From Candidatus Latescibacterota bacterium (GTDB lineage Bacteria; Latescibacterota; UBA2968), in NCBI GenBank assembly GCA_965198115.1, contig OZ240241.1, forward strand, positions 4,224,001 to 4,288,000: DNA of 64,000 bases. Reading direction: 5' to 3'. Shown here in pieces: positions 43,978 through 63,345 of this stretch (position 1 is its first letter; the number at the start of each line of letters is the position of its first letter). The notes under the pieces are model-generated. The model made no database searches and had not been told where the DNA came from. It was given only the letters and a program-made list of their open reading frames with translations. Made by a program: the position numbers and the translations under genes.

Positions 43978-44016
43978 CCCTCTCCTTTCTCCTTAGTCAC
44001 TGTCCTCAGGACCGAG

Positions 44017-45393
44017 GAGCTACAATCAATAGGTGTGGAAAAATAGAAAAGGCGACCCTACACTTCCCGTGAGATAACAATATCCACGAAATACCGGGTT
44101 CACAGGCCCGGTGGGAAGGAGGATCGCCGTGGGAAAACATAAGTCGAAGTCCCCCTCGTTGTCCATGCCGACGTGGGAAACCCTTGAGGGGTGGTTGCGT
44201 AAGGAAATCGAGGTTCGCATTCAGTCCATCGTTGAGGAGGAAGTGACCCAGTTCCTCGGACGCGGGTGGTATGAGCGCAAAGAAGCCGTAGATGCAGGAT
44301 CCGGTTATCGCAACGGCTATGGGAAGCTGCGGCGATTGTCGACCTCTTGCGGCACGATCCAGATCAAGCGGCCCCGTGTTCGCGGTTTGGAGGAGCGCTT
44401 CGAGAGCAGGATTCTGCCGTTGTTCGCTCGGCGCACGAGAGAGGTGGGGGAACTGCTCCCGGAGCTCTATCTCCACGGTCTGTCTCAGGGCGACTTCGAG
44501 TTGGCCCTGCGAGGGCTTCTCGGTGATGGGGCTCCGCTCTCCCCCTCGTCGATTGCTCGCCTCCGCGGTCAATGGGAGGTTGATTACCAGACCTGGCAGG
44601 AACGACGCCTGGACGATCGTGAGCTCGTGTATGCCTGGGCCGATGGGATCTACGTCAAAGCCGGACTTGAGAAAGATAAGGCGTGTCTGCTTGTCGTGAT
44701 CGGCGCCATGAGTGACGGCCGCAAAGAGGTTCTGGGCCTGGTGCCTGGGTATCGCGAGTCGACCGAGTCCTGGCTGGCTGTCCTTAGAGACCTACGGGAT
44801 CGCGGCTTGGATCACCCCATTCTGATGGCGGCCGATGGCAATATGGGCATCTGGTCTGCCGTCGATCAGGTCTGGCCGCACACCCGTCAGCAGCGGTGCT
44901 GGAACCACAAGATTCTCAACGTCCCGGACCAGATCCACAAACGTCAGCAGCCTCAAGCTCGTGCACTGCTCGTCCAGATTCCCTATGCCAGCACGCGTCA
45001 GGATGCGGAGAAGCTGCGCAAGCAGTTCGTCGCACGATATCGCAACGAGTTCCCGAAGGCGGTGGCAACACTCGAACGGGATTGGGATAGGATGCTCACC
45101 TTCTTCGATTTCCCAGAAGAACACTGGCGCCACCTGAGAACGACCAACATCGTCGAGAGCCCCTTTGCATCCGTGCGGTTACGAACCAACGCCGCCAAAC
45201 GCTACAAGAAGGTCGTCGCGGCAAGCGCTCTCATCTGGCGAACACTGATGGTCGCCGAGAAACGCTTCCGGCGACTCAATGCACCCCATCTGTTACACGT
45301 TGTTTATGCACAGCACAACCAAACTATGACCACAATCGACTCCGGGAAGAAGCTGGCCGCCTGATCTATTTACACACCTCTTGACTCGACCTC
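44017..45393 (+). mobile_element. IS256 family insertion sequence with 8-bp target duplication GGACCGAG
   Basis: IRL gagctacaatcaataggtgtggaaa; IRR (reverse complement) gaggtcgagtcaagaggtgtgtaaa; GGACCGAG at 44009-44016 and 45394-45401. Confidence 0.92.
44129..45364 (+). CDS. IS256 family transposase
   Basis: YRNGY, WADG, ADG, QRCWNHK, RTTNIVES DDE motifs; aggagg RBS before GTG. Confidence 0.95.
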   Translation: MGKHKSKSPSLSMPTWETLEGWLRKEIEVRIQSIVEEEVTQFLGRGWYERKEAVDAGSGYRNGYGKLRRLSTSCGTIQIKRPRVRGLEERFESRILPLFARRTREVGELLPELYLHGLSQGDFELALRGLLGDGAPLSPSSIARLRGQWEVDYQTWQERRLDDRELVYAWADGIYVKAGLEKDKACLLVVIGAMSDGRKEVLGLVPGYRESTESWLAVLRDLRDRGLDHPILMAADGNMGIWSAVDQVWPHTRQQRCWNHKILNVPDQIHKRQQPQARALLVQIPYASTRQDAEKLRKQFVARYRNEFPKAVATLERDWDRMLTFFDFPEEHWRHLRTTNIVESPFASVRLRTNAAKRYKKVVAASALIWRTLMVAEKRFRRLNAPHLLHVVYAQHNQTMTTIDSGKKLAA

Positions 45394-48932: not shown

Positions 48933-49702
48933 CTACAAAACCACTTGCACAAAGACCATTAGGCAGAACCCTGTCAGAAACGCCCAGGCGACCTCGTAGG
49001 AAGAGCGCTTGTCGAGGGCATCCGGTATCAGTTCCCCAACGACCAGAAAGATCATCGCTCCAGCTGCAAGTCCCAGCAGCGGGACCATCAGCGGATGGAA
49101 AAACCAGACCATCAACGTAGCGGGTACCGCGGCGACTGGTTGCGGAACGCTCGTAAGGAAGGCGGCAACGGCGCACCGAAGAATGCTCGCGCCCCGGGCC
49201 CGCATCGGGATCGCCACCGCTAGCCCTTCGGGAATGTTGTGGATGGCGATCGCCAGTGCGATGTTGCTGCCGAGGTTGTCCGCATCCGCAACGAGCTCTT
49301 CGGAGGCGTATCCCACACCCACCGCGATCCCTTCGGGGACGCTGTGGAAAGACATCGCCACGAAGATCAGGATCTCCCGACGAGATCCAAAGGATTTCAC
49401 ACGATCCAGTCGCTCCTCTGTGAGGGCTCTGTCCAGAATCCACAGAAATCCACCACCGGCCAGGACGCCCCGAGCAATTTCAAGACAGGCAAGACCGATT
49501 GCCCGTGGCTTCCAAGGGTCAGCCCCGGGAGGATGAGATTGTAAACAGAGGCTGAGAACATCAGCCCCCCGGCAAAACCGTAACCCAGACCTACGCGGTT
49601 CTCCAGATCGATCGTCTTGAAACATAACGGCAGGGCGCCAAGACCGCACGCCAGACTCGCCGCCATCCCGGCGACGAAGCACTCGACAAGGAATGAGTTC
49701 AT
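48933..49702 (-). CDS. ZIP family metal transporter (ZupT/GufA), frameshifted near 49470
   Basis: GFAGGLM.SAS in 49397 frame; HSVPEGIAVG, HNIPEGLAV, AAGAM, ELIP in 48933 frame; RBS aggagg. Confidence 0.85.
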
Positions 49703-49719
49703 TCGGTCCTCCTCCTTGT

Positions 49720-49747
49720 AGAATAGCCCTACCGCTCCGCCCGTCAA
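49720..49747 (-). promoter_or_regulatory. Putative sigma70 promoter for the ZIP gene
   Basis: TTGACG-N16-TATTCT, with AT-rich sequence upstream. Confidence 0.4.
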
Positions 49748-49935
49748 CCCATAACCCATTGTTTTTATGTAATTTGAATACGTAAACATCTGTTTGCCTC
49801 GAACGCCGTCTGTTTGGTCTGCAAAACAGAAGGCGCCGACTATTTCAGCCGACGCCTCGATATCGTCAATGCCACCTCGGAAAAGCAACTCCCACACATC
49901 TCGCTATCTGCATGACTCCCGGTATGCAGTGGTAC

Positions 49936-52423: not shown

Positions 52424-53563
52424 TCACCGTACTCGACGCTTACGCCCTTTGAGAGCGTCCGGTGAAACACGTGGAGCAATGAAGTTCAGGATCGTCTCCA
52501 GACTCTCCCTGGACTTTTTCAAGAACTTGAATCGAACCAGGTCGCGGTCCACCGTCGTCGCGCGGGCCAGCCACCCGGCCAGAAAGGAGGGGCCCTCGGC
52601 GCCCGGCTGAATCCGAATCAGGTCCCCTTCCCCCATCGTCGTGGGGCTTTCTACCACCAGCCCGCTCCCGCTCTGTTCGACCAACCGCACAGGAATTTCT
52701 TCCAGGTTCTCGAATTTGTCGAACAACTCGTCCGAAGGGATCTCGCGTCCATACGTGGAAGTGGGTAAGTGCGTTACCGTAACGGCCACATCCAGATCAC
52801 AGCTGAAGATCTTTCGATCTTCGTTGTATATCAGTTCGTCCCCGTGTTCCAGAACCAGGTAGGCGTGCGGACGAGTATACTCCTTCATAATCTGTGTGCT
52901 GAACCGACATTCACCGCCATACGGCGACCAGAAAAATGCCCAGACAGGATGTCGAGGCCGAAACCGAACAATGCGCTTGCCCTCTTGGAAGGGCTCCGTG
53001 TAAATCGCCAGGTCGTTGAGTTCGAGGATCTCGGCCGAAAGTAGACGAAACCCCGATCCACCACGGGCCAAGACGAACAGCTTCTGACCGAGCATAAGGT
53101 GCCGCGTGTTCCTGGGTCGACGATCCTCGGAAATATACCGGAAGCCCACCTTCTCTCGCACGGCTGCGATCCGGTCGACGGCGTCTTCCATCTCCAACCA
53201 CGGCAGCTTTCGTGCACGCCGGATGTAGGCACGTGCCGCGTTATCGAACCCATCGAGCGAAGAAAGAACCGTCGCCGGATTGAGATCGGGCACGGCCTCG
53301 GCCATCGACTCGACCAGCCTGTTCTCCATCGGATCGAACGCATTCTGATCCGCCAGCTTTTGTAGCTGATCGAATCCCCTCAGGGTGCGCTCTCTACGTC
53401 GGATACGCTTGCGCACGGTGTTGACCACGAGGGGAATGAGCACCAACAGAACCAACACGATTCCGATATACAGAACCGCCTGCACAGTCGGATCCTCACG
53501 ATCCTGTAGCTTCGACAGAACAGGCGCGAATCCTTCGACTTTCAGGAGCACGAACGAAACCAC
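52424..53563 (-). CDS. Membrane-anchored hypothetical protein with YcgR/PilZ-like C-terminal region
   Basis: N-terminal TM (LYIGIVLVLLVLIPLVV), helical region, EDRKIF and EQSGSG resembling degenerate RxxxR and DxSxxG. Confidence 0.5.
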   Translation of the reverse strand: MVSFVLLKVEGFAPVLSKLQDREDPTVQAVLYIGIVLVLLVLIPLVVNTVRKRIRRRERTLRGFDQLQKLADQNAFDPMENRLVESMAEAVPDLNPATVLSSLDGFDNAARAYIRRARKLPWLEMEDAVDRIAAVREKVGFRYISEDRRPRNTRHLMLGQKLFVLARGGSGFRLLSAEILELNDLAIYTEPFQEGKRIVRFRPRHPVWAFFWSPYGGECRFSTQIMKEYTRPHAYLVLEHGDELIYNEDRKIFSCDLDVAVTVTHLPTSTYGREIPSDELFDKFENLEEIPVRLVEQSGSGLVVESPTTMGEGDLIRIQPGAEGPSFLAGWLARATTVDRDLVRFKFLKKSRESLETILNFIAPRVSPDALKGRKRRVR

Positions 53564-53740
53564 GTGGCCTTCCCGCAAATGATGGATCGTCGCAGCAAGA
53601 TGACCGCTTGCTCCTTTTAAATATAGGGCACTTCGAATCCTGTGACTATACGACGGCTCACAGGCGTACCGAACTGGATTGATGAAAGAGCACCGCACAG
53701 AAGCGATGTTCGGACTCTCCGCTCTTGGGGGAGACGGCGA

Positions 53741-53780
53741 AAAGAGAAAGGGCGTCCACGACTACGTGGACGCCCTTTTC
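53741..53780 (-). terminator. Rho-independent terminator after the giant surface-protein gene
   Basis: Minus strand gaaaagggcgtccacg-tagt-cgtggacgccctttctctttt. Confidence 0.8.
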
Positions 53781-53797
53781 AAACAAGATGATGAAAG

Positions 53798-56700
53798 CTA
53801 CTTGAGCAGCATCATCTTTCGAACCGTGGTGAACGCGGACGTTTGAGTACCCACAGCCTGCATTCGTACGAAATACAGACCGCTGGCCACCTGTCGACCG
53901 TATTCGTCTCGACCGTCCCACGCCACACGGTGGCAACCGGCGGTGAGCCGATCGTCGACAAGATGGGAGACCTGCTGGCCCAGCACGTTGTAAATCGTCA
54001 GGCGAACATCGGCAGCCTCGGGCAACGCGAACGGAATCACCGTTTCCGGGTTGAACGGGTTCGGGTAATTCTGCGTCAGTGCGAACGCATCGGGCATCGC
54101 CTGAAGCTCCGCCGCGGAGTCACCCAGGCGACGGATGTTGCCGGCTGGATCAGACACGAACGCTTCTGCAATTTCGACCACACCCGTCACCGTCGGGTCG
54201 AGCACGTTGAACTGAAGCTCCACAATCGAACGATCCCCGACGATCCCCTCGGTCAGGACATCGGCCAGGGTGATCTTGCCCGACTGGCGAGCCTCGAGCG
54301 CTGGCCGCCCGTCTTCCGCGAACAAGGAAGTGCCGGCAGACAGCACATCGGAGAGTTCAAACGCCACGGCGTCGTATTTCAGCGTCAGTCCATAGCCCTG
54401 AACGACCTCGGCATCGGAGAGATCGACTGAGACCGTGATCATCTCGCCGTTGCGGGCGCTTTGAGCCACCAGACTGATCCCAGTCTCGGCATTCAAATGA
54501 GGCCCGAGACCCAGAGGTTTGGTCAACGCCCGTTTAGCCGGCCCACCAAACGCCCCGGCAAAGGTGATGAAGTCGGGGAACCCAATGTTGCCATCCCCGT
54601 CGAGGTCGAACTTCGAATCGAAGTTCGCTGCCCCTACAGAGGCCCCGAAGGCCTGAGCGAACTGGATGAAATCGCCGAACCCGACGATTCCGTCCCCGTC
54701 GAAGTCGGGTGTGGGTTCACCGCTGGCATCGCCACCGATCTGAATCGTGGCGCCACCGGCTCCGATCGTCAGACGCGTCTGATCGGCAGCCGAGGTGGCG
54801 AACTGACCACTGCTGAGCGTGATACGTGTCGGCAGCGTCGCACCATCCTTCACGGTGAATGTGACCGTGCCGATGCTTCCTGAGTCCGCGGTCGTCTTCG
54901 TTGTCCCCAGGAAGGCCACACTCCCGCGGAAGAGACCGTCCCCCTCCGTCGGAATCGGCAACGCACCCGAGAAGAGTCCGGACAGCGTGAAGGTGCCGAA
55001 CTCAAGGTTAGCCGACTCGAAAAGCAAAGTGAATTGATAGCCTGCCAACCCCGTGGCGCCTTCGGTGGCCACCAGATCAACCGTCACCGTGCCGTCATCC
55101 GGCACGTCCTCGAGGATGCGTTCCTCCCGATCCCCGTCGGCCGAATCGAGATCGAGCGCCATCGGACCGATCGTGCCTTCCCCGATGGCTGCCGCAGCCC
55201 TACCCACGACCGTTGCGGTCACCTCACGGGCACCCGATACATGCGGTAACAACCACGTCACCTTCAGCCTGAATCGTGAGGGAGGCGGTCGCCATACCAG
55301 ATGCACTCGGAACCGTTGCGCTCGATCCGCCGTCGACCTGTGCGTCCCCTGAAGTGACCGAGAACGTAATGTCCAACCCGTCGTCGGTCAGTGCGAGACC
55401 GTCCAGGTCGAACAACGCCGCCGTCAATGTCGCCGACTCACTCCCGTCCGAGGCGAGCGAATCAGAGCTCGACGTCAGCGTAATCTGACGCTCGAGACCT
55501 TCGACATTCACCGTTCCACGCGTGAACGTCTCGAGTTCCTCAACACCACCTTCACCGTTCGAGAACTGAACCTTGGTTACGGTCACATCGGTCATGCCGC
55601 TGAACCGGTCGTTCACGAGGAAAGACAGGACGGCCAGCAACCCATCACCCTGCCCCAACTGGCTGTCGGAAGCGCCCAGGAGCACTGTGGAGAAGCTGAT
55701 GGCGTCTCCCTGGGGGATCGAGAGGCTGACGGCGACACCCCCGCTCTGCTTCAGAATGTTGGTCTCGAGCGTGCCGTCCTCTGCGATTCCGTCGAGCGTC
55801 ACGGCTGTCGAGTCGTAGTCCACCTGGATCTCGTAGCCCAGCAGATCCACGACGCCCTTGGCGTAAACCGCGATTTCGAACGACTCACCCGGCGGGACCG
55901 TGGTTTCCGTCACGCCACCGTCGCCTGCCGCCGTATCGAAATCGACCGAGACAGCGTCATCCGCCACCAGGTCGACTTCCGTTGTCACGAGCGGAAGCGG
56001 CACGGTAAAGTCCTCCACGACCGTAGCCCCACCCGCTTCGACGGCGATTGGGTCCGGAGCTCCGTCACCGTTTGGATCGTAGGCGCCGGAGGTCGGTCCT
56101 GCCGATGTCTCGACCTGGGCGAACAAACCGTATGTACCTTCGCTCAGACCTTCAACTTGGTAACCGCCCTGCTCGTCGACAACGCTCCCGCCTGCGATCT
56201 CACCTTCTTCGTTGACCGCGATGACCTCGCCGAACAGAATCTCGACCGGATCTGCTTGTTTCGAAGCCGCTTCTACGAGCAACAGACTGCCCTCGATGCT
56301 ACCAAAAGACTCGAGCTGACCGCCCGTCGCAAACGTGAGTGTCAACGACTCGGGCAGGGGCTGTCCATTCTTTCCGTGCGCACCACGGAGCGTGAATGTG
56401 TAGGACGTGTTCGGCGCCAGCTCGACAGGAATCACGGCGGTCGTTCCATCGTCATCGAGGAAAACGTCGAGTGGACGTCCCTCGCCGGGAACCAGGAACG
56501 CCTCGACGTTGACGAAACGTCCTGCCTGACGGACCGGTGCGGAGAACGTAATGCGTATCTCGCCGCTCTCGGGCACGTCGACCGCGCCGTTTTCGGGTTC
56601 GGTGCTTACCACGCGGAATGCAGATCCTATCGCCCGGATCGTGAAGTCAGCCTTCGCGAAAAGACCGAGTGACGGCACTTCGATTTCGACCTCGTGAAGA

Positions 56701-59700
56701 CCCGGACCCAGGTTGCGGGCGACCGCGCCGGATCGGACAACCACCGGAGGCAGGAAATCGAGGAACACGACGATCTCGGTGTCGAGTACGTTCCCATCGA
56801 TATCGACCACGTTGAGAACCGCATCATTCTCATCGCCTTCACCGTCAAAATCTCCGGTGTCAACTTCAACGAAGACTTCCGCCAGATCTCTGAACGTCTC
56901 CGCGTAGAAGACGAGCGGCGCATCACCGATGATTTCGCCTTCCATGAAGATGTTTTGACCCGGAAGGGAAGCGAGACTCACCGGGTTCTCATTCTCGTCG
57001 ATGACCTCGATTCCGTCGCCCAGCGTGAACGGCGGAAGTGCCGTGAACACCAGGAGGAACCCGTCGTCCGTTTCCTCGATTTGAACCTGGAAGCGATCGA
57101 AGATCTCTTCCTCGGGATGAAGGGGACGCGGAAACGCCGGATTCAGCAACGTCAGCCTGACGACACCGGGCCTGAACGGGTTGAATTCGACGACGATCTG
57201 CGCTTCCTCGCTGGATTCCAGAAGATCCCTGAACTGTTCAGGGGGAATGCCCCGGCCACCAAAGTCGCCGAAGAATGTACGGTCCGTGATCGGCTCGGGC
57301 AGACGTGCCGCGAGTACAATCGTCCGCTAGCCTCATCCACGCTCTCCACGAGGCCATCGATCTCAAAAGGTTCGCCGCCGATGATCGACACGAACTCGGC
57401 CACGCGCTCACCCTCGGGTGCGCCCGGGAAGACCGTTTCCGTTCCCTCCACGGCCACCAGAACACCGTGTCTCAACTCGTGGAGACCCGCTGGGGACTCA
57501 TCGGGGAAAGTGATCACTGTGTTGCGCGTGATCCTGGCTGGTGCAGGTGGACTCGGTGAAATGACATTTTCGAAGTCACGCAACTGACCGAACAGGTCAT
57601 CAACCCGAATGAGAAGATCCTCATCGAGTTGAATCGGGTCCACGCCGAGTGGTAGCACCTCGATGCCCACGGCCAGCTGCCGGTTAGGATCGGGAATGTC
57701 TTCGGTGAAGATCCGAAGGAAACGTGGCTCGAACTGGAACGTCTGCTCCGAGAGAAGCGCATCACGCAGTTCTCTCAACGACCCCACGACGTTGCCGTCG
57801 GGCAGCATGATCTCCGTACCTGGCGGCACGAACAGCTCGATCGACGGTTGGAAGAACAGGAAGCCACCGAACTGATCGAAGAACTCCACGCGCGCTGCGA
57901 TCTCGAACGTGCGCTGACGTGCACCACCGTTCAGAATTAGAACGAAGCTCGCTGTGATCCTGCCCGAATCGTTCTCCTCTCCGAACACGGCGACCTGAAC
58001 GCCGAGGCCGATGTCAGCGAATTCTCGTAATTCGTCCAGAGGCACGCCTGGAATCGGGCTGGGCGGCGGGAAGAACGGATCGGGGAACTGCTTGGCCCTC
58101 GTCACCTTGGCAGCCGGTTTGGTTGCCTTGCTGTTCGTGAGCGGCTGGGCACGCTTGAACGCGGACCCTCTGGCCCCCCGAAGAAGGGATCGAAGAAATC
58201 GTCCTGGAAAGGATTGAAAAAGACGACACCGACGACCGTATCATCTGTGATCGCAACTTCGACCGGTACTTCGTCGTCACCTTCCACAAAGATCAATCGA
58301 TTATCGGCATCGACATCGACCACGGCGCCGATGATTTGGGGCTCTTCCTGTTCCGGGCCGCGGAAAATCATGACACGATCGGCATCAATGCTGCCATCGT
58401 CGCGGAACAGGCCGAAGATGTCGACGTCATCTCCTTCGACCAGGTCGTCGAACGTACCCTGCACGATCTCCGGCTCCTGGAAAATTGGAACAAGGCCGAA
58501 CAGAATCTCGAAATCGAAGAAGTCGACGATCCCGTCGCCGTTGGCATCGTGCGCTTCGGGGCTGTTGAACCAAGCGTCGAAGTCGGCATCATCGAAGATC
58601 CCGTCTCCATTGAAATCACCCGGTTCACCGAACTGCGCCCGCTTGGCTGCGACCTTTCGGCGCGCCTCCTTCAGGGCGTCTCGCTGGAAAAATGGTTCTT
58701 GGAAAATCTGGATCTCGAAGACCGTCGCGTCAGAGACGTGAACTGTCGTCCGGAATCCGAAGTCGTCGATGACGAAGGAGCCGACCGCACGATCGATCTC
58801 AATCACCCGACCGAAAGCAACCGGGAAACCACCAAACCCACCGCCACCTGCGTCGAAATCGCGCAGGATCTTCACACCGGTGGCAAAGATCGTACCGTCA
58901 CTCTCCACCTCGCCGAACACTTCGACGAAATCTCCTTCGATCAGGTCCTCGTAGACGGCGAATCCTTCGAACGGGTCACCACCACCGGCGAATGGATCGC
59001 CGAATGGGTCGCCACCGAAGAACGGGTCATCGAACTGGCCCTGCTGGGTCTGCCCGAACGTACCGAATCCATCTTCGGGCGGAGGTGGACCCCCGACGCG
59101 AATGAAGAATTCAGTCTCATCCGTGACCTGGACGGTGTGAACCACGCCCGTCTCATCCTGGACATCGAACGTCCCGGCATCTCGATCGATCGTGACAACC
59201 TCGCCTTCTACGGCAAGTTCGCCGAGATCTCCTGGACCACCGGGTCCTGGCTGGAGGATGCGGTCCAACCCATCGAACGTGATGAACCCGTCTGGACCGA
59301 CCTGGTTCCGGAAGAGTTGCTTCAGATCTTCTGGGAGCTGGAACAGGAGAAGTTCGTCAAGCGGTACTCCGAACCCGCCGGAGTCATCGATGGCTCTCCG
59401 GATGGACTCGATGATCTCGAACACGATTCCCTCGAATTCGGGCGGAATCCCCGGCGGGAATCCATCGGGCGGAGGGCCACCGCCGAGGGCGATGCGAACC
59501 TCGTCCAGATTAATCTCACCGTCATCACCGGCGATGTCCTCGAGAATGCCTCGAAGATCGTCCGTCAGGAAGCCGAACCACGAAATCGCCGGCGTCGGCG
59601 GCGGAGCACCCGGCTCCAGCAGCGTCGCCTCGATGTCGAACAGTACGTCGATCAACTTCTGCGGGAGATCGCCGAAGGGTGGCGGTGGAGAGCCACCGCC

Positions 59701-61995
59701 GAGGGCGATGCGAACCTCGTCCAGATTAATCTCACCGTCATCACCGGCGATGTCCTCGAGGATGCCTCGAAGATCGTCCGTCAGGAAGCCGAACCACGAA
59801 ATCGCCGGCGTCGGCGGCGGAGCACCCGGCTCCAGCAGCGTCGCCTCGATGTCGAACAGTACGTCGATCAACTCCTGCGGGAGATCGCCGAAGGGTGGCG
59901 GTGGAGGGCCACCGCCGAGGGCGATGCGAACCTCGTCCAGATTGATCTCACCGTCGTCACCCGCGATGTCCTCGAGGATGCCCCGAAGATCGTCAGTCAA
60001 GAAACCGAACCAAGCAATTGCAGGCGTCGTCGGTCCCGCCCCCGACTCCAACAGTGTCGCTTCGATATCGAACAGCACGTCCAGCAACTCTTGCGGTAGA
60101 TCGCCGAAGGGGGGCGGTGGGGACCCACCACCGAGGGCGATGCGGACCTCTTCCAAGTCGATCTCACCGTCATCACCGGCGATGTCCTCGAGAATGCCTC
60201 GAAGATCGTCAGTCAGGAAACCGAACCAAGCGCTCGCGGGCGACGTTGGCGGCGCACCGTCCTCCAGCAGCGTCGCCTCGATGTCGAACAAAACGTCCAG
60301 CAGTTCCTGAGGAAGGTCGCCAAAGGGAGGCGGAGGCTGGCCGCCGAAGAGGGCGGCACGGACTTCGTCCAGGTTGATCTCACCGTCATCGCCAGCGATG
60401 TCCTCGAGCAGAGCGCGAAGATCGTCGGTCAGAAAGCCGAACCACGAAACAGCCGGCGTCGTCGGTGGTGCGCCAGGTTCCTCCAGGGTCGCGAGAATGT
60501 CGTGCAACACACTGACCAGTTCATCCGGGAAATCACCCGGAGGCGGCGGACCGAAGTCGAAGATGCCGTCGAGAGCCCGGAAGACATCGTCGAGTACAAA
60601 CTGCCCGTTTGAGCCGCCGAGCAGTTCCAGAAGCTCGATGTCCCGATCATCGCTCAGACGTGAACGGAATTCCTCGATCGAAAGCAGGAATCCGGGAGGC
60701 TCACCTTCGAGCCGAACTCTCATTTCCTCAAGAAGGTCTCTTAAAACCTGGCTGAGAATGACCGGCTCGTCCGGTCCTCCGAATCCGGGTTCCAGCTGCT
60801 CAAAGAACTCGATGATGTCCGCGCTCAGGCCACCACCTTCGTGCTCGACCACAAACACGTTGACCGGCGTGTCGAGCTGAACGTCACCGAAGGAAGCCGG
60901 TTCGAACGCCGGTGGTGGGATCGGCTCGGTGGGATCGACAGGCGGTGGCTCCGTTCCAGGAAGAATGCGCCGATACTCGGTCTCTGGAACGGTGCCGATT
61001 AGTTGGACGGTCCCATCTTCCTGAGTAACCTCGAACTCGCCCGTCGCGGGATCGACAAACGTGATGACACCAAACACCCAGAACCCTTGTCCATCGGGGC
61101 CAGGCGGGGGCTGGCTGAAGAAGATGTCGAAGTCATCCCTATCGATATCCCCGTCGCCATCGAGGTCCGACGCTTCAGGTTCGGCCACCCAGAAAGCGAC
61201 ATCGGCATCATCCAGGATGCCGTTGCCATCAAAATCGCCGAAGATGAACTCGGGAGGTTGTCCCCCTGGAATGAATCCAGGCGGCGGATTGGCCGGATCG
61301 AACTGGGTATTGAAGACAGGGACCCCGTAGAATAGATCGAAGTCTTCGACGCCTACCTCCCCATTGCCATCGAGGTCACCGGCTTCCGGAAGTCCCGCCC
61401 AGGCAAAGAAGTCCGAGAAGTCCACCAGTCCATTGAAGTCGAAATCGGGGCCAATTCCTGACGGAGGAGGCTGGTTGGGATCCGTTGGGTCGCTAGGGGG
61501 CGGCTGGTTGGGGTCGGTGCCGAAGAAGGAGTCCCCGAAGAAGAGATCGAAATCGAGTGTATCGATCACGCCGTCACCGTTCAGATCCCCAGCCTCAGGC
61601 AGTGACGCCCAGAGGATGAAATCCCCGAAATCGACGGCTCCAGTCCCATCGTAGTCAGGCCCTGGAAGCGGAGGTGGCTGATTCGGATCGGTCGGATCAC
61701 CCGGAGGGGGCGGCGGAGGCTGGTTCGGATCGACCGTCGTGCCAAAAACGGGTCCGCCGAAGAAGAGGTCGAAGTCCTCGACGCCTACCTGCCCGTTACC
61801 GTCCAGGTCACCCGCCTCAGGCAGCGACGCCCAAATTAGGAAGTCGCCAAACCCCACCACGCCGTCCCCATCATAATCGGGCCCTGCAGGTGGCGGATCC
61901 TGAGCAAGAGCAGGTGAGAGCGAGATCAAGGTTACGCCCACCACGGCTGTCAGCGCGACTGCGGCGCCCCGGTAATTTTGAAACCACCGCAACAT
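53798..61995 (-). CDS. Giant secreted acidic multidomain protein (~2,730 aa; 3 frameshifts): dockerin/EF-hand modules, 72-aa repeats, DUF5666-like, Ig-like, three cohesin-like domains, FlgD/T9SS-like C-terminal sorting domain
   Basis: ggagg RBS; signal peptide ending PALA|QD; frames 58102..62064, 57152..58105, 55224..57149, 53798..55306 join at ~58162, ~57325, ~55240; C-terminus LTQNYPNPFNPET...IYNVLGQQV...WDGRD..G..VASGLYF...KMMLLK. Confidence 0.82.
59476..60552 (-). repeat. Five tandem 216-bp (72-aa) intragenic repeats
   Basis: Motif recurs at 59476, 59692, 59908, ~60124, ~60340; unit PPPPFGDLPQELLDVLFDIEATLLE.GAPP.TPA.SWFGFLTDDLRGILEDIAGDDGEINLDEVRIALGGG. Confidence 0.92.
61115..61885 (-). 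repeat. Four paired EF-hand/dockerin-like modules separated by Pro-rich linkers
   Basis: PD(Y/F)D..G.V.F.DF..WA.LPEAGDL(D/N)G.G.....DFDLF three times plus a divergent fourth; linkers DPNQPPP. Confidence 0.85.
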
Positions 61996-62048
61996 AGCTA
62001 CCCTCCGATGAGAAATGACGATGCGACTTCGTAACAGATAGACCCTTA

Positions 62049-63310
62049 GTACTCCTGTTCGCAAATACGGTGACGTATTCTAAGCAGACTTTGCCAAGGG
62101 CGTATCGTAGAACCTGAGTTTGTCGATCATCTCCGCGAGATCTGTTCGTGTGAACTTCCATTTGAAGGGTGTGGCGATACGTCCGTAGCGTTCCTGAAAA
62201 CCGAGGATTCTTGCCTCAAGCTCTTCGAGCGATGCAAATTCGATAGGTGTCAGAGCCTTGCGTTTGAGGATCGAGAAGTAGATCTCGATCTGATTGAGCC
62301 AGCTTGCGTGGATCGGAAGGTGAACGGGGTGGATGTTTGGCCACTTCCCCTGGATACGGTCGATGCATGTTTGCCCTCGGTGCGAGGAGCCATTATCCAC
62401 GATGAGGTAGACTTTCTTTGCCGAGCAATAGGGTTTCCGGCTCATGATCAGGCTCAGGAGCCGGTTGAAGGGCTCGATACCCGAAGAAGACTCACAGAGA
62501 CCGAAGATTCGACCATTGTGCACGTCGAGAGCAGCCAGATAGGCCAGGGCTCCTTTCCGCTCGTATTCGTGTTTCAACGCGTGCCGCTCTGTTCGAGGCT
62601 GGCGGTAGGGTAACGTGCTTGCGAGCTCGTGCTTGAATACTGGTCTTTTCGTCGGCAGAAAGTACATATTCCCTCGGCCCTAAAGGCTTTCCTTGCCATT
62701 GGCGGTGATACAGATCAAGGACTCTACCTGCTTTGGTTTGGAAGTCCGGGTCCCGTGGGAAAATCCAGGAGCGATGATACCAAGGACGAATCGCGTCCTC
62801 GTTCAACCAGCGCCAGACAGTGGCGCCGCTGATCTTGGCAACGAAGCCCCTTTGCACTGCCTCGGCGGCAATCTCGGAACAGCTGAACCGCGAGAGCGGT
62901 ATCCCGCTCTCGCTCGGTAGTTCACACGCCAGCGCCTTGATCTGAACGACCACCTGAGGGGGGAAAACCGGGCGGGCGCCCGGGACGAGATCTATCTTCG
63001 AGTCCCGAAAGACGCTCTTCGAAAAAGCGCTTACGCCATTTGCTTACGATCGGACGCGGGACATCCAACCGTTGGGCGATAATCTTGTTGGATAATCCCT
63101 CGGCGGCGAGAAGCACGATTTTCGATCGGATCACTTGATAATACGGTAACGTATATTGTCCAGCCATTCGCTCGAGGTCGACCCGTTCCTTCTCAGACAG
63201 TAGCACCACATAAGGCGAACGTCTTGGCATTGTTCTCCTCCTTTTGAAGGAGAACATAAGCTACAAATAATGTTCAGAACATACGTAATAATGTTTATGA
63301 AACCATGCAC
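62049..63310 (-). mobile_element. IS630 family insertion sequence with TA duplication
   Basis: TA at 62047-62048 and 63311-63312 (empty site CTTAAG); imperfect IRs gtactcctgttcgcaaatacggtgacgt / gtgcatggtttcataaacattattacgt. Confidence 0.8.
62080..63230 (-). CDS. IS630 family transposase in three frames (probable programmed frameshift ~62960; extra indel ~62573)
   Basis: HTH (RSKIVLLAAEG...KWRKRF...RPGRP), TTTTCCCCCC slippery run, ADEKT, HEYERKG, IVDN, HLP.HASWLNQIE DDE motifs. Confidence 0.88.
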
Positions 63311-63313
63311 TAA

Positions 63314-63345
63314 GAAGCCCCCATCAAAATTAGATGGGGGCTTTC
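63314..63345 (-). terminator. Hairpin, likely terminator of the SCO gene
   Basis: aagcccccatc-aaaatta-gatgggggctt. Confidence 0.55.

Follow-up and report, generated by a model that had tools for sequence, protein, structure and literature searches.

The locus considered here raises the question of whether a giant, non-catalytic protein carrying both cohesins and a dockerin could build a surface scaffold outside the cellulosome. It lies in a window of 64,000 nucleotides (contig OZ240241.1, positions 4,224,001 to 4,288,000 of the forward strand) from a Candidatus Latescibacterota bacterium (genome G000), where an initial annotation had recognized a calcium-binding scaffold hidden in four reading frames and had proposed that it could recruit dockerin-tagged proteins. 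We propose a modified reading, with a probability of roughly 0.6 and judged from sequence, in which proteins that join the third cohesin of this protein (cohesin 3) to a C-terminal sorting domain (CTD) for type IX secretion (T9SS) would act as surface sockets into which dockerin-tagged proteins plug. The window gene would be an optional long stalk with one dockerin and three cohesins, lost in this strain.

The joined protein and its cohesin–dockerin tail

Four consecutive minus-strand frames, read from the ATG at 61995 to the stop at 53798 and joined at their switch points, give a protein of 2,728 aa (D 10.3%, E 7.7%, F 8.0%, P 8.4%; Gly-rich too). The joined frames are collinear with a single open frame in a relative of the same genus (G001), at 53–71% identity over the main stretches; that ortholog runs for 2,296 aa and is ended by the contig end. 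No in-frame stops occur within the stretches homologous to G001, and several genes downstream are common to both loci. The length of about 2,730 aa, the richness in Asp, Glu, Phe and Pro and the lack of a catalytic domain that were first reported are thus borne out: no catalytic Pfam family was found in the joined protein at E≤0.1, and the Pfam scan found no carbohydrate-binding module (CBM). The signal peptide and CTD expected of a T9SS type A cargo are both present, in different frames of the G000 copy; the first piece has a signal peptide without a CTD, and the last a CTD without a signal peptide.

The tail contains three cohesins, set apart by an Ig domain and the dockerin, with no tandem free array. 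Pfam cohesin matches were obtained at E 2.8e-8 and 2.9e-12. When the tail is modelled with AlphaFold (mean pLDDT 84, pTM 0.41), cohesins 2 and 3 adopt the cohesin topology (Z 13–14.5, rmsd 2.5–3.0 over about 130 residues) and the top structure matches are cohesins, so that the three cohesin-like domains originally seen hold up, the first of them through PF00963. The claim of dockerin-like modules in the plural reduces to one true dockerin-like module, as the five other EF pairs gave no match to a dockerin profile built from G000. The CTD had also been correctly recognized; it has FlgD_ig/Por_Secre_tail Pfam matches, scores 24.2 bits with TIGR04183 (cut-off 23) and in the model resembles the C-terminal region of PorU (6za2_B, Z 10.3).

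Both calcium loops of the dockerin follow the duplicated D1, D/N3, D/N5, D12 pattern with an ensuing helix, and both halves carry Phe10, Ala17, Phe20 and Gly21. These residues recur across the family, where, of 54, the two halves have Phe10 in 48 and 50, Ala17 in 48 and 42, and Phe20 in 53 and 47. PF00404 matches 17 of 29 family members at E≤0.01, and the top three PDB matches of a profile of 29 dockerin-like modules are the cellulosomal dockerins 2y3n_B, 4wi0_B and 4u3s_B (E 1.6e-12 to 1.9e-10), followed by 2b59_B; the model for GC-type dockerin-anchored proteins, NF041540, gave 17.3 bits, below its cut-off of 29. The type II dockerin signature comprises a hydrophobic residue at position 10, Ala17, Phe20 and Asn/Gly21 (PMC5590126; this and the other papers discussed with known systems are cited from excerpts), and the Phe-rich pattern of the G000 dockerins fits it. 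Because the recognition residues are conserved in both halves, two binding orientations would be allowed. The domain ahead of the dockerin, separated from it by about 5 residues, has a cohesin fold and is not an X60 module; X60 is missing ahead of 111 B. cellulosolvens type II dockerins (PMC5590126, excerpt).

Dockerins, a stand-alone cohesin and export genes across the order

Of the 61 dockerin modules in G000, 45 sit at the C-terminus of an open reading frame (ORF) that lacks an export tag (CTD) of its own, 7 lie near an N-terminus and 9 belong to dockerin–(cohesin 3)–CTD tails; some of the ORFs with C-terminal dockerins are frameshift fragments. All 14 other genomes of the order that were searched have dockerins, at 38–118 per genome. 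Among the 31 of 61 G000 dockerin ORFs scanned at a family cut-off of E≤1e-5, the cargo domains were LRR, NHL/Kelch/YNCE propellers, CARDB, ASH, FN3 and peptidases S8, M10 and M28; these 31 matched neither a glycoside hydrolase nor a CBM family. As this cargo consists mostly of adhesin-type repeats with a few proteases, the system would display binding proteins rather than form a cellulosome.

Cohesin 3 of the window protein belongs to the same subfamily as a stand-alone protein of about 250 mature residues (signal peptide, cohesin 3, CTD) that is nearly universal in the order, with matches in 52 of 53 genomes. Its gene in G000 lies at C1:1278187-1279050 (L105:4188-5051, minus strand), and the main copy adjoins hem/cobA genes. 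Of the 20 copies listed for six single-contig genomes, 15 lie away from the hem operon, and 14 of these have a dockerin gene within 5 kb, mostly adjacent and on the same strand, compared with 5 of 40 control windows of 10 kb; the P value of 4e-8 overstates the contrast because the genomes are kin. A weak cohesin-like match stands just ahead of the dockerin in 11 of 12 chosen neighbours, so that these linked genes form a split pair, [cohesin 3–CTD] and [cohesin–dockerin–cargo], which mirrors the fused tail of the window protein. The module order recurs among the 150 best representatives, obtained with a query that biases the result this way: cohesin 2 precedes the dockerin in 101 of 114 cases (median linker 5 residues) and cohesin 3 follows it in 65 of 67. 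An apparent loss of cohesin 2 from genera g4 and g7 (0/4 genomes, single query) was dropped, as further genomes of g4, g7, g8 and g9 have a diverged copy ahead of the dockerin. Beyond the order, 5/5 dockerin-positive and 0/5 dockerin-negative genomes gave cohesin 3-like matches. The stand-alone protein is a candidate for a universal anchor or carrier.

The window protein appears to be an accessory member, outside the core of this system, since near-complete relatives with 38–53 dockerins show no match to it; the central place first given to it is not retained. Of 40 relatives, 7 have a strong homolog, whereas the 15 genomes of genus g4 have none; homologs that bear names are labelled Ca. Latescibacterota. 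G000 itself has one further broken paralog (C1:5022-5027 kb) and one with an open frame of 2,127 aa (C1:7645438-7651818). Homolog N-termini vary, with EF pairs in the window protein and a CxxCH/Temptin_C domain in several others. This CxxCH-containing start, seen in several family members and one dockerin-tagged protein (L016:3640-12987, L021:5987-11236, L022:2-4600, P0005, L078), may be where a surface protein binds haem c. The database protein P0003 (1,170 aa), 77% identical to frame C, has a start that resembles the paralog tail and an abrupt end, and looks chimeric or misassembled.

A genome-wide listing, suggested at the outset as a check, yielded export genes besides the 61 dockerins. 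SprA and the PorV family score over cut-off in 5/5 genomes (11 PorV-family matches in G000, 8 of them over cut-off; 8–16 in four relatives), and a PorU-like C25-type ORF with a CTD is present in 5/5, at 203–258 bits with a cut-off of 420. Models for GldL, GldM and GldN matched in none of nine genomes, with the positive-control genomes equally silent; a T9SS with a divergent motor is possible in G000 and its 8 relatives. For type II secretion, GspL was found in 0/9 genomes, and GspD was below cut-off in five and not found in four, with controls positive for both, which leaves the dockerin cargoes without an obvious other exit. In the T9SS, PorU cleaves the CTD and attaches the cargo to a lipid anchor. 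While a cargo is being exported, its CTD is bound by SprA and PorV (PMC10994853, excerpt).

A mechanism is proposed for relatives with an intact gene, where Sec would take the protein over the inner membrane and it would fold with Ca2+. By analogy with the Bacteroidota T9SS, SprA/PorV would then be its way out, the PorU-like enzyme would remove its CTD, and the protein would end up fixed on the outer surface. Its OB-fold and Ig arrays would make a long acidic stalk. The Phe-rich type II-like dockerin is probably received by cohesin 3, as this domain occurs on its own in the conserved signal peptide–cohesin–CTD gene, extra copies of which lie beside dockerin genes. Cohesin 2 and the dockerin make a tight unit, akin to an X-dockerin dyad, that may add further docking. 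CTD-anchored cohesins would dock, and perhaps co-export, dozens of dockerin-tagged, CTD-less adhesins and proteases.

Probable decay of the window gene and its remaining features

Three frameshifts interrupt the window gene. A single ORF had been expected from accurate reads; instead, the frameshifts are also present in contigs from two public sequencing runs, X1 and X2 (14,137 nt, depth 9–11), which match positions 53500–59500 with 0 mismatches and 0 gaps. A 151-nt record from a third run of the same study, X3, recorded as separate sample S2, spans frameshift 1. At frameshifts 2 and 3 there is neither a homopolymer nor a slippery stretch. Because the breaks stand in the run contigs and an IS630-type element lies 49 bp before the start codon, the window copy is most likely a pseudogene; long-read error was rejected as the main reading of the breaks on account of the gapless X1/X2 contigs and the X3 bridge. 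The public records of this sequence come from a single study and include no RNA data.

Over the syntenic windows (about 350 kb of G001, 194 orthologs, 75,533 aligned aa), G000 has 22 frameshifts in 19 orthologs, or about 1 per 10 kb, a rough rate, as a few breaks sit upstream of start codons. With gene sets picked post hoc, after the first result, the ribosomal/RNA-polymerase cluster has 0 frameshifts in 8,760 aa (2.6 expected, P 0.08), and the SprA, PorU-like and main PorV genes are frameshift-free (P 0.02 together). Secreted cargo genes, a set that includes the window gene, have 11 in 12,040 aa (3.5 expected). The genome has 67 near-full matches to the IS630 element at >98% identity and 309 repeated stretches totalling 623 kb, and relaxed selection in an IS-rich genome fits the decay best.

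Further signs of disruption were noted nearby and elsewhere. The IS630 transposase reading is split across three frames (window 62080-63257), and an IS256-type element (family by eye) lies at window 44014-45393, with 8 near-identical matches in the genome. A ZIP-type transporter-like gene (family by eye; window 48933-49897), which has no counterpart at the G001 locus, is in two frames and likely another pseudogene. The GAPDH ortholog at L063 (G000:C1:3538734-3539677), whose adjoining paralog is only 38% identical, is frameshifted, and so are galK- and galE-like genes (names by eye) in the L053 comparison.

Features of the window gene and its flanks (positions in the window)
Feature	Position	Strand	Basis
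Window gene: ~2,730-aa non-catalytic T9SS cargo protein, most likely a pseudogene, in four frames	53798..61995	-	open frames, G001 alignment, run contigs
IS630-type element, 49 bp upstream of window-gene ATG	62045..63314	-	Pfam, repeat search
Sec signal-peptide-like N-terminus, cleavage predicted before Gln	61906..61995	-	by eye
Four short EF-type Ca loop pairs, 23-aa spacing, Pro-rich linkers	61132..61878	-	sequence
72-aa (216-bp) tandem repeat, 4.6 copies, 86% matches	59471..60465	-	repeat finding
DUF5666-like unit array, predicted OB-fold, across breaks 1 and 2	56910..59214	-	Pfam weak, G001 model
Fifth EF-loop pair, inserted in OB unit	58513..58617	-	sequence
Frameshift 1, net loss of one base (modulo 3) relative to G001	58159..58177	-	G001 comparison, run contigs
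Frameshift 2, one base fewer than G001	57327..57330 (base at 57328)	-	G001 comparison, run contigs
FN3-like Ig domain, inferred from G001 model	56631..56909	-	Z 8.6, rmsd 2.6, 78 aligned
Big_5 Ig domain	56319..56630	-	Pfam E 8e-12
Conserved beta domain with EF-like loop, no Pfam match	55992..56312	-	sequence, homologs
Cohesin 1	55494..55961	-	PF00963 E 2.8e-8, over cut-off
Big_1-like Ig domain, frameshift 3 at its end	55236..55490	-	Pfam E 1e-6
Frameshift 3, loss of two bases relative to G001	near 55240, end of Big_1-like domain	-	G001 comparison, run contigs
Cohesin 2	54725..55195	-	model: Z 13.5, rmsd 2.8, 132 aligned to 4uyp_A
Type II-like dockerin, two Ca loops each with following helix	54539..54715	-	sequence, model, profile
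Cohesin 3	54125..54505	-	model: Z 14.5, rmsd 2.9, 129 aligned to 2vo8_A
T9SS type A C-terminal sorting domain	53801..54100	-	Pfam, TIGR04183, model
Terminator-like 14-bp hairpin, 20 bases after stop	53747..53778	-	such sites at chance level: 10 found, 9.5 expected

Most of the body was read correctly at the outset, including the signal peptide, the four paired EF modules with a fifth pair, the 72-aa repeats and the Big_5-like Ig domain. A carboxypeptidase-regulatory-like domain was not confirmed, there being no Pfam match at that place, and two domains had been overlooked, Big_1 and the FN3-like domain ahead of Big_5. The four N-terminal EF pairs are missing from the available part of the G001 ortholog. 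The 72-aa repeat, a diverged copy of which begins at 60762, is modelled in G001 (pLDDT 45–80) as a helix–strand–helix unit resembling a degenerate EF-hand pair; an ESM Atlas search with it gave no usable match. The DUF5666-like units, with an extra one beginning near 61083, match Pfam only below cut-off (E 8e-5), and it is the OB-fold in the G001 model that speaks for them (Z 8–9, rmsd 2.0–3.1 over 72–75 residues). This middle-region model (pLDDT 73) shows OB-fold units and the FN3-like domain, and its Z 8–9 matches indicate fold, not function; Foldseek with the 986-aa G001 model returned only matches with TM<0.1 to the query. Very acidic domains are set apart by short basic linkers, many with Lys-Gln at their end (window 58640-58660, 58090-58160, 56255-56270 and 54515-54535). 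They are placed alike in homologs, with 21 KQ over ten sequences vs about 10 expected, and are possible processing sites.

A promoter scan of the region gave 5 sites vs 1.7 expected, none of them assignable. Directly downstream, window 52424-53698 encodes a membrane-anchored 424-aa protein, syntenic in G001, with a weak PilZNR match (E 0.018). Elsewhere in the genome, ORFs of 1,055 and 1,116 aa (G000:C1:3369365-3370096 and 1429118-1430107) with partial rpoB-family matches (E 1e-25) are possibly phage-type or divergent polymerases, and a Pup-proteasome-like gene cluster (names by eye) was noted at G000:C1:6996541-7003159 in the L062 comparison.

Alternative readings and relation to known systems

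Several observations weigh against the socket reading or the decay of the window gene. Position 9 of the dockerin loops is Gly or Asp instead of the usual Asn, the PorU-like gene of G000 scores 207 bits where the cut-off is 420, and a crude signal-peptide screen gave only a modest excess for dockerin ORFs (19/37 vs 532/1,557 controls). None of the five hem-linked anchor copies has a dockerin gene within 5 kb, and the co-occurrence counts are non-independent because the genomes are kin. As cohesins directly adjoin the dockerin in most cases, cohesin–dockerin pairs could also bind within one chain and recruit nothing. Regarding the breaks, a copy of housekeeping GAPDH is frameshifted too, and X1/X2 are probably the assembly's own sample, with the library type not on record, so that shared systematic errors are possible.

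The dockerin could instead be an export or sorting tag read by a PorV-family carrier, with the cohesin-fold domains serving as spacers or stabilisers that bind nothing in trans. The numerous PorV-family matches, the C-terminal place of 45/61 G000 dockerins, the excess of dockerins (38–53) over Pfam cohesins (2–3) in G004, G008 and G011 and the alternative carrier used by type B T9SS substrates (PMC10994853, excerpt) would all suit such a tag. We nevertheless regard it as improbable, as 7 G000 dockerins are N-terminal and many are internal in relatives, unlike C-terminal sorting signals, and as neither the conserved signal peptide–cohesin–CTD protein nor its linkage to dockerin genes would be explained. 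It is also unlikely that both-module proteins chain dockerin-to-cohesin, the head-to-tail polymerisation suggested at the outset, into a surface mesh or S-layer-like matrix with the large protein as its scaffold. The 5-residue linker between cohesin 2 and the dockerin is possibly too short for binding in cis, cohesin-like matches precede the dockerins of anchor neighbours, and the OB-fold matches include a domain for S-layer self-assembly (9fs9_D, Z 7.9), tied with many unrelated OB folds; against this stand the sparse distribution of strong homologs and the broken window copy. Head-to-tail chaining could coexist with surface sockets.

It is very improbable that the full protein is made in this organism, with the breaks due to errors in the assembly or with recoding to bypass them. 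The genome-wide frameshifts, GAPDH included, a sequence known from one study only and homologous stretches free of in-frame stops are what such a reading would lead one to expect. It would, however, need three separate recoding events, two of them at breaks without a homopolymer or slippery stretch, and it does not sit well with the spared essential genes, with contigs from two runs that match over 6 kb free of gaps, or with the record of a second sample that spans break 1. On the socket reading, the surface scaffold first proposed keeps its cohesin folds, dockerin, type A CTD, T9SS genes and large dockerin pool, and loses the production of the window protein, given the three frameshifts and the upstream IS630. 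A bolder extension remains tentative and somewhat doubtful: a piggyback export code, in which the universal 250-residue cohesin–CTD carrier would bind 40–120 dockerin-tagged, CTD-less proteins in the periplasm, take them through SprA and hold them on the surface, with both-module proteins, an intact window protein among them, branching the assembly into a Ca-locked mesh.

The closest precedent is Ca. Stygibacter (Cloacimonadota), for which a cellulosome-like complex of a CTD-bearing scaffoldin and dockerin enzymes was proposed from genomes alone (PMC8542988; excerpt, as for the details that follow). Both cases involve an uncultured bacterium, a large cohesin protein that is non-catalytic and has a CTD at its end, and signal-peptide proteins with C-terminal dockerins, an S8 peptidase among them. 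In Stygibacter, glycoside hydrolases are recruited by a scaffoldin with CBMs and cohesins in tandem, whereas the window cohesins flank a dockerin on a body of OB/Ig arrays, a single-cohesin CTD protein occurs order-wide, and the 31 scanned dockerin ORFs lack both glycoside hydrolase and CBM families. The window protein likewise departs from cellulosomal scaffoldins, which have tandem free cohesins, a CBM and partner glycoside hydrolases bearing dockerins. The system described as new is best seen as an order-wide variant of an idea already put forward for Cloacimonadota. A non-cellulosomal cohesin and dockerin encoded by adjacent genes for giant Ig-rich surface proteins are also known from an FCB bacterium, Chlorobium chlorochromatii (Cag_2037/Cag_2038; bioRxiv 10.64898/2026.03.19.712371, excerpt), there as one pair with T1SS-type export and alginate lyase/RTX cargo.

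The dockerin signature with Gly21 and the cohesin fold recall clostridial type II anchoring (PMC5590126, excerpt). Further parallels are the upstream module tightly fused to the dockerin, as in the CipA X-dockerin, and monovalent anchoring cohesins, as in clostridial single-cohesin anchors. The system differs in its anchor, a T9SS CTD in a diderm cell rather than SLH or sortase, in a pre-dockerin module with a cohesin fold and no X60, in Phe for Met at position 10 and in its non-cellulolytic cargo. Clostridial type II anchoring cohesin proteins include SdbA and ScaE. The signal peptide, the CTD after a beta-sandwich domain and the SprA, PorV-family and C25 PorU-like genes recall T9SS type A export (PMC10994853, excerpt), here in a host outside Bacteroidota, with GldL/M/N unmatched by the models used (controls silent) and with a cohesin carrier proposed as necessary for the partners that have no CTD. 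PMC7424252, in its excerpt, cites Farag et al. 2017 for dockerins within cellulosomes in Latescibacteria; dockerins in this group have thus already been reported, and that paper may bear on novelty. PMC4454575 makes no mention of cohesin, dockerin or cellulosome. We found no literature on cohesins, dockerins or T9SS in Latescibacter, subscription papers and supplements being outside the search, and a titles-level listing gave no case of T9SS piggyback export.

The window gene itself carries less weight as an accessory member decayed in an IS-rich genome; the order-wide anchor and its possible carrier role matter more. The stand-alone cohesin and the 60-residue dockerin are small and soluble and can be tested as a pair, one that may be orthogonal to those of clostridia, and the system offers a direct test of whether the T9SS exports CTD-less proteins riding on a carrier. 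If the binding is true, cohesin–dockerin assembly would extend beyond cellulosomes to a diderm phylum that displays adhesins and proteases, on a scale like that of the largest cellulosomes, with tens to over a hundred tagged proteins.

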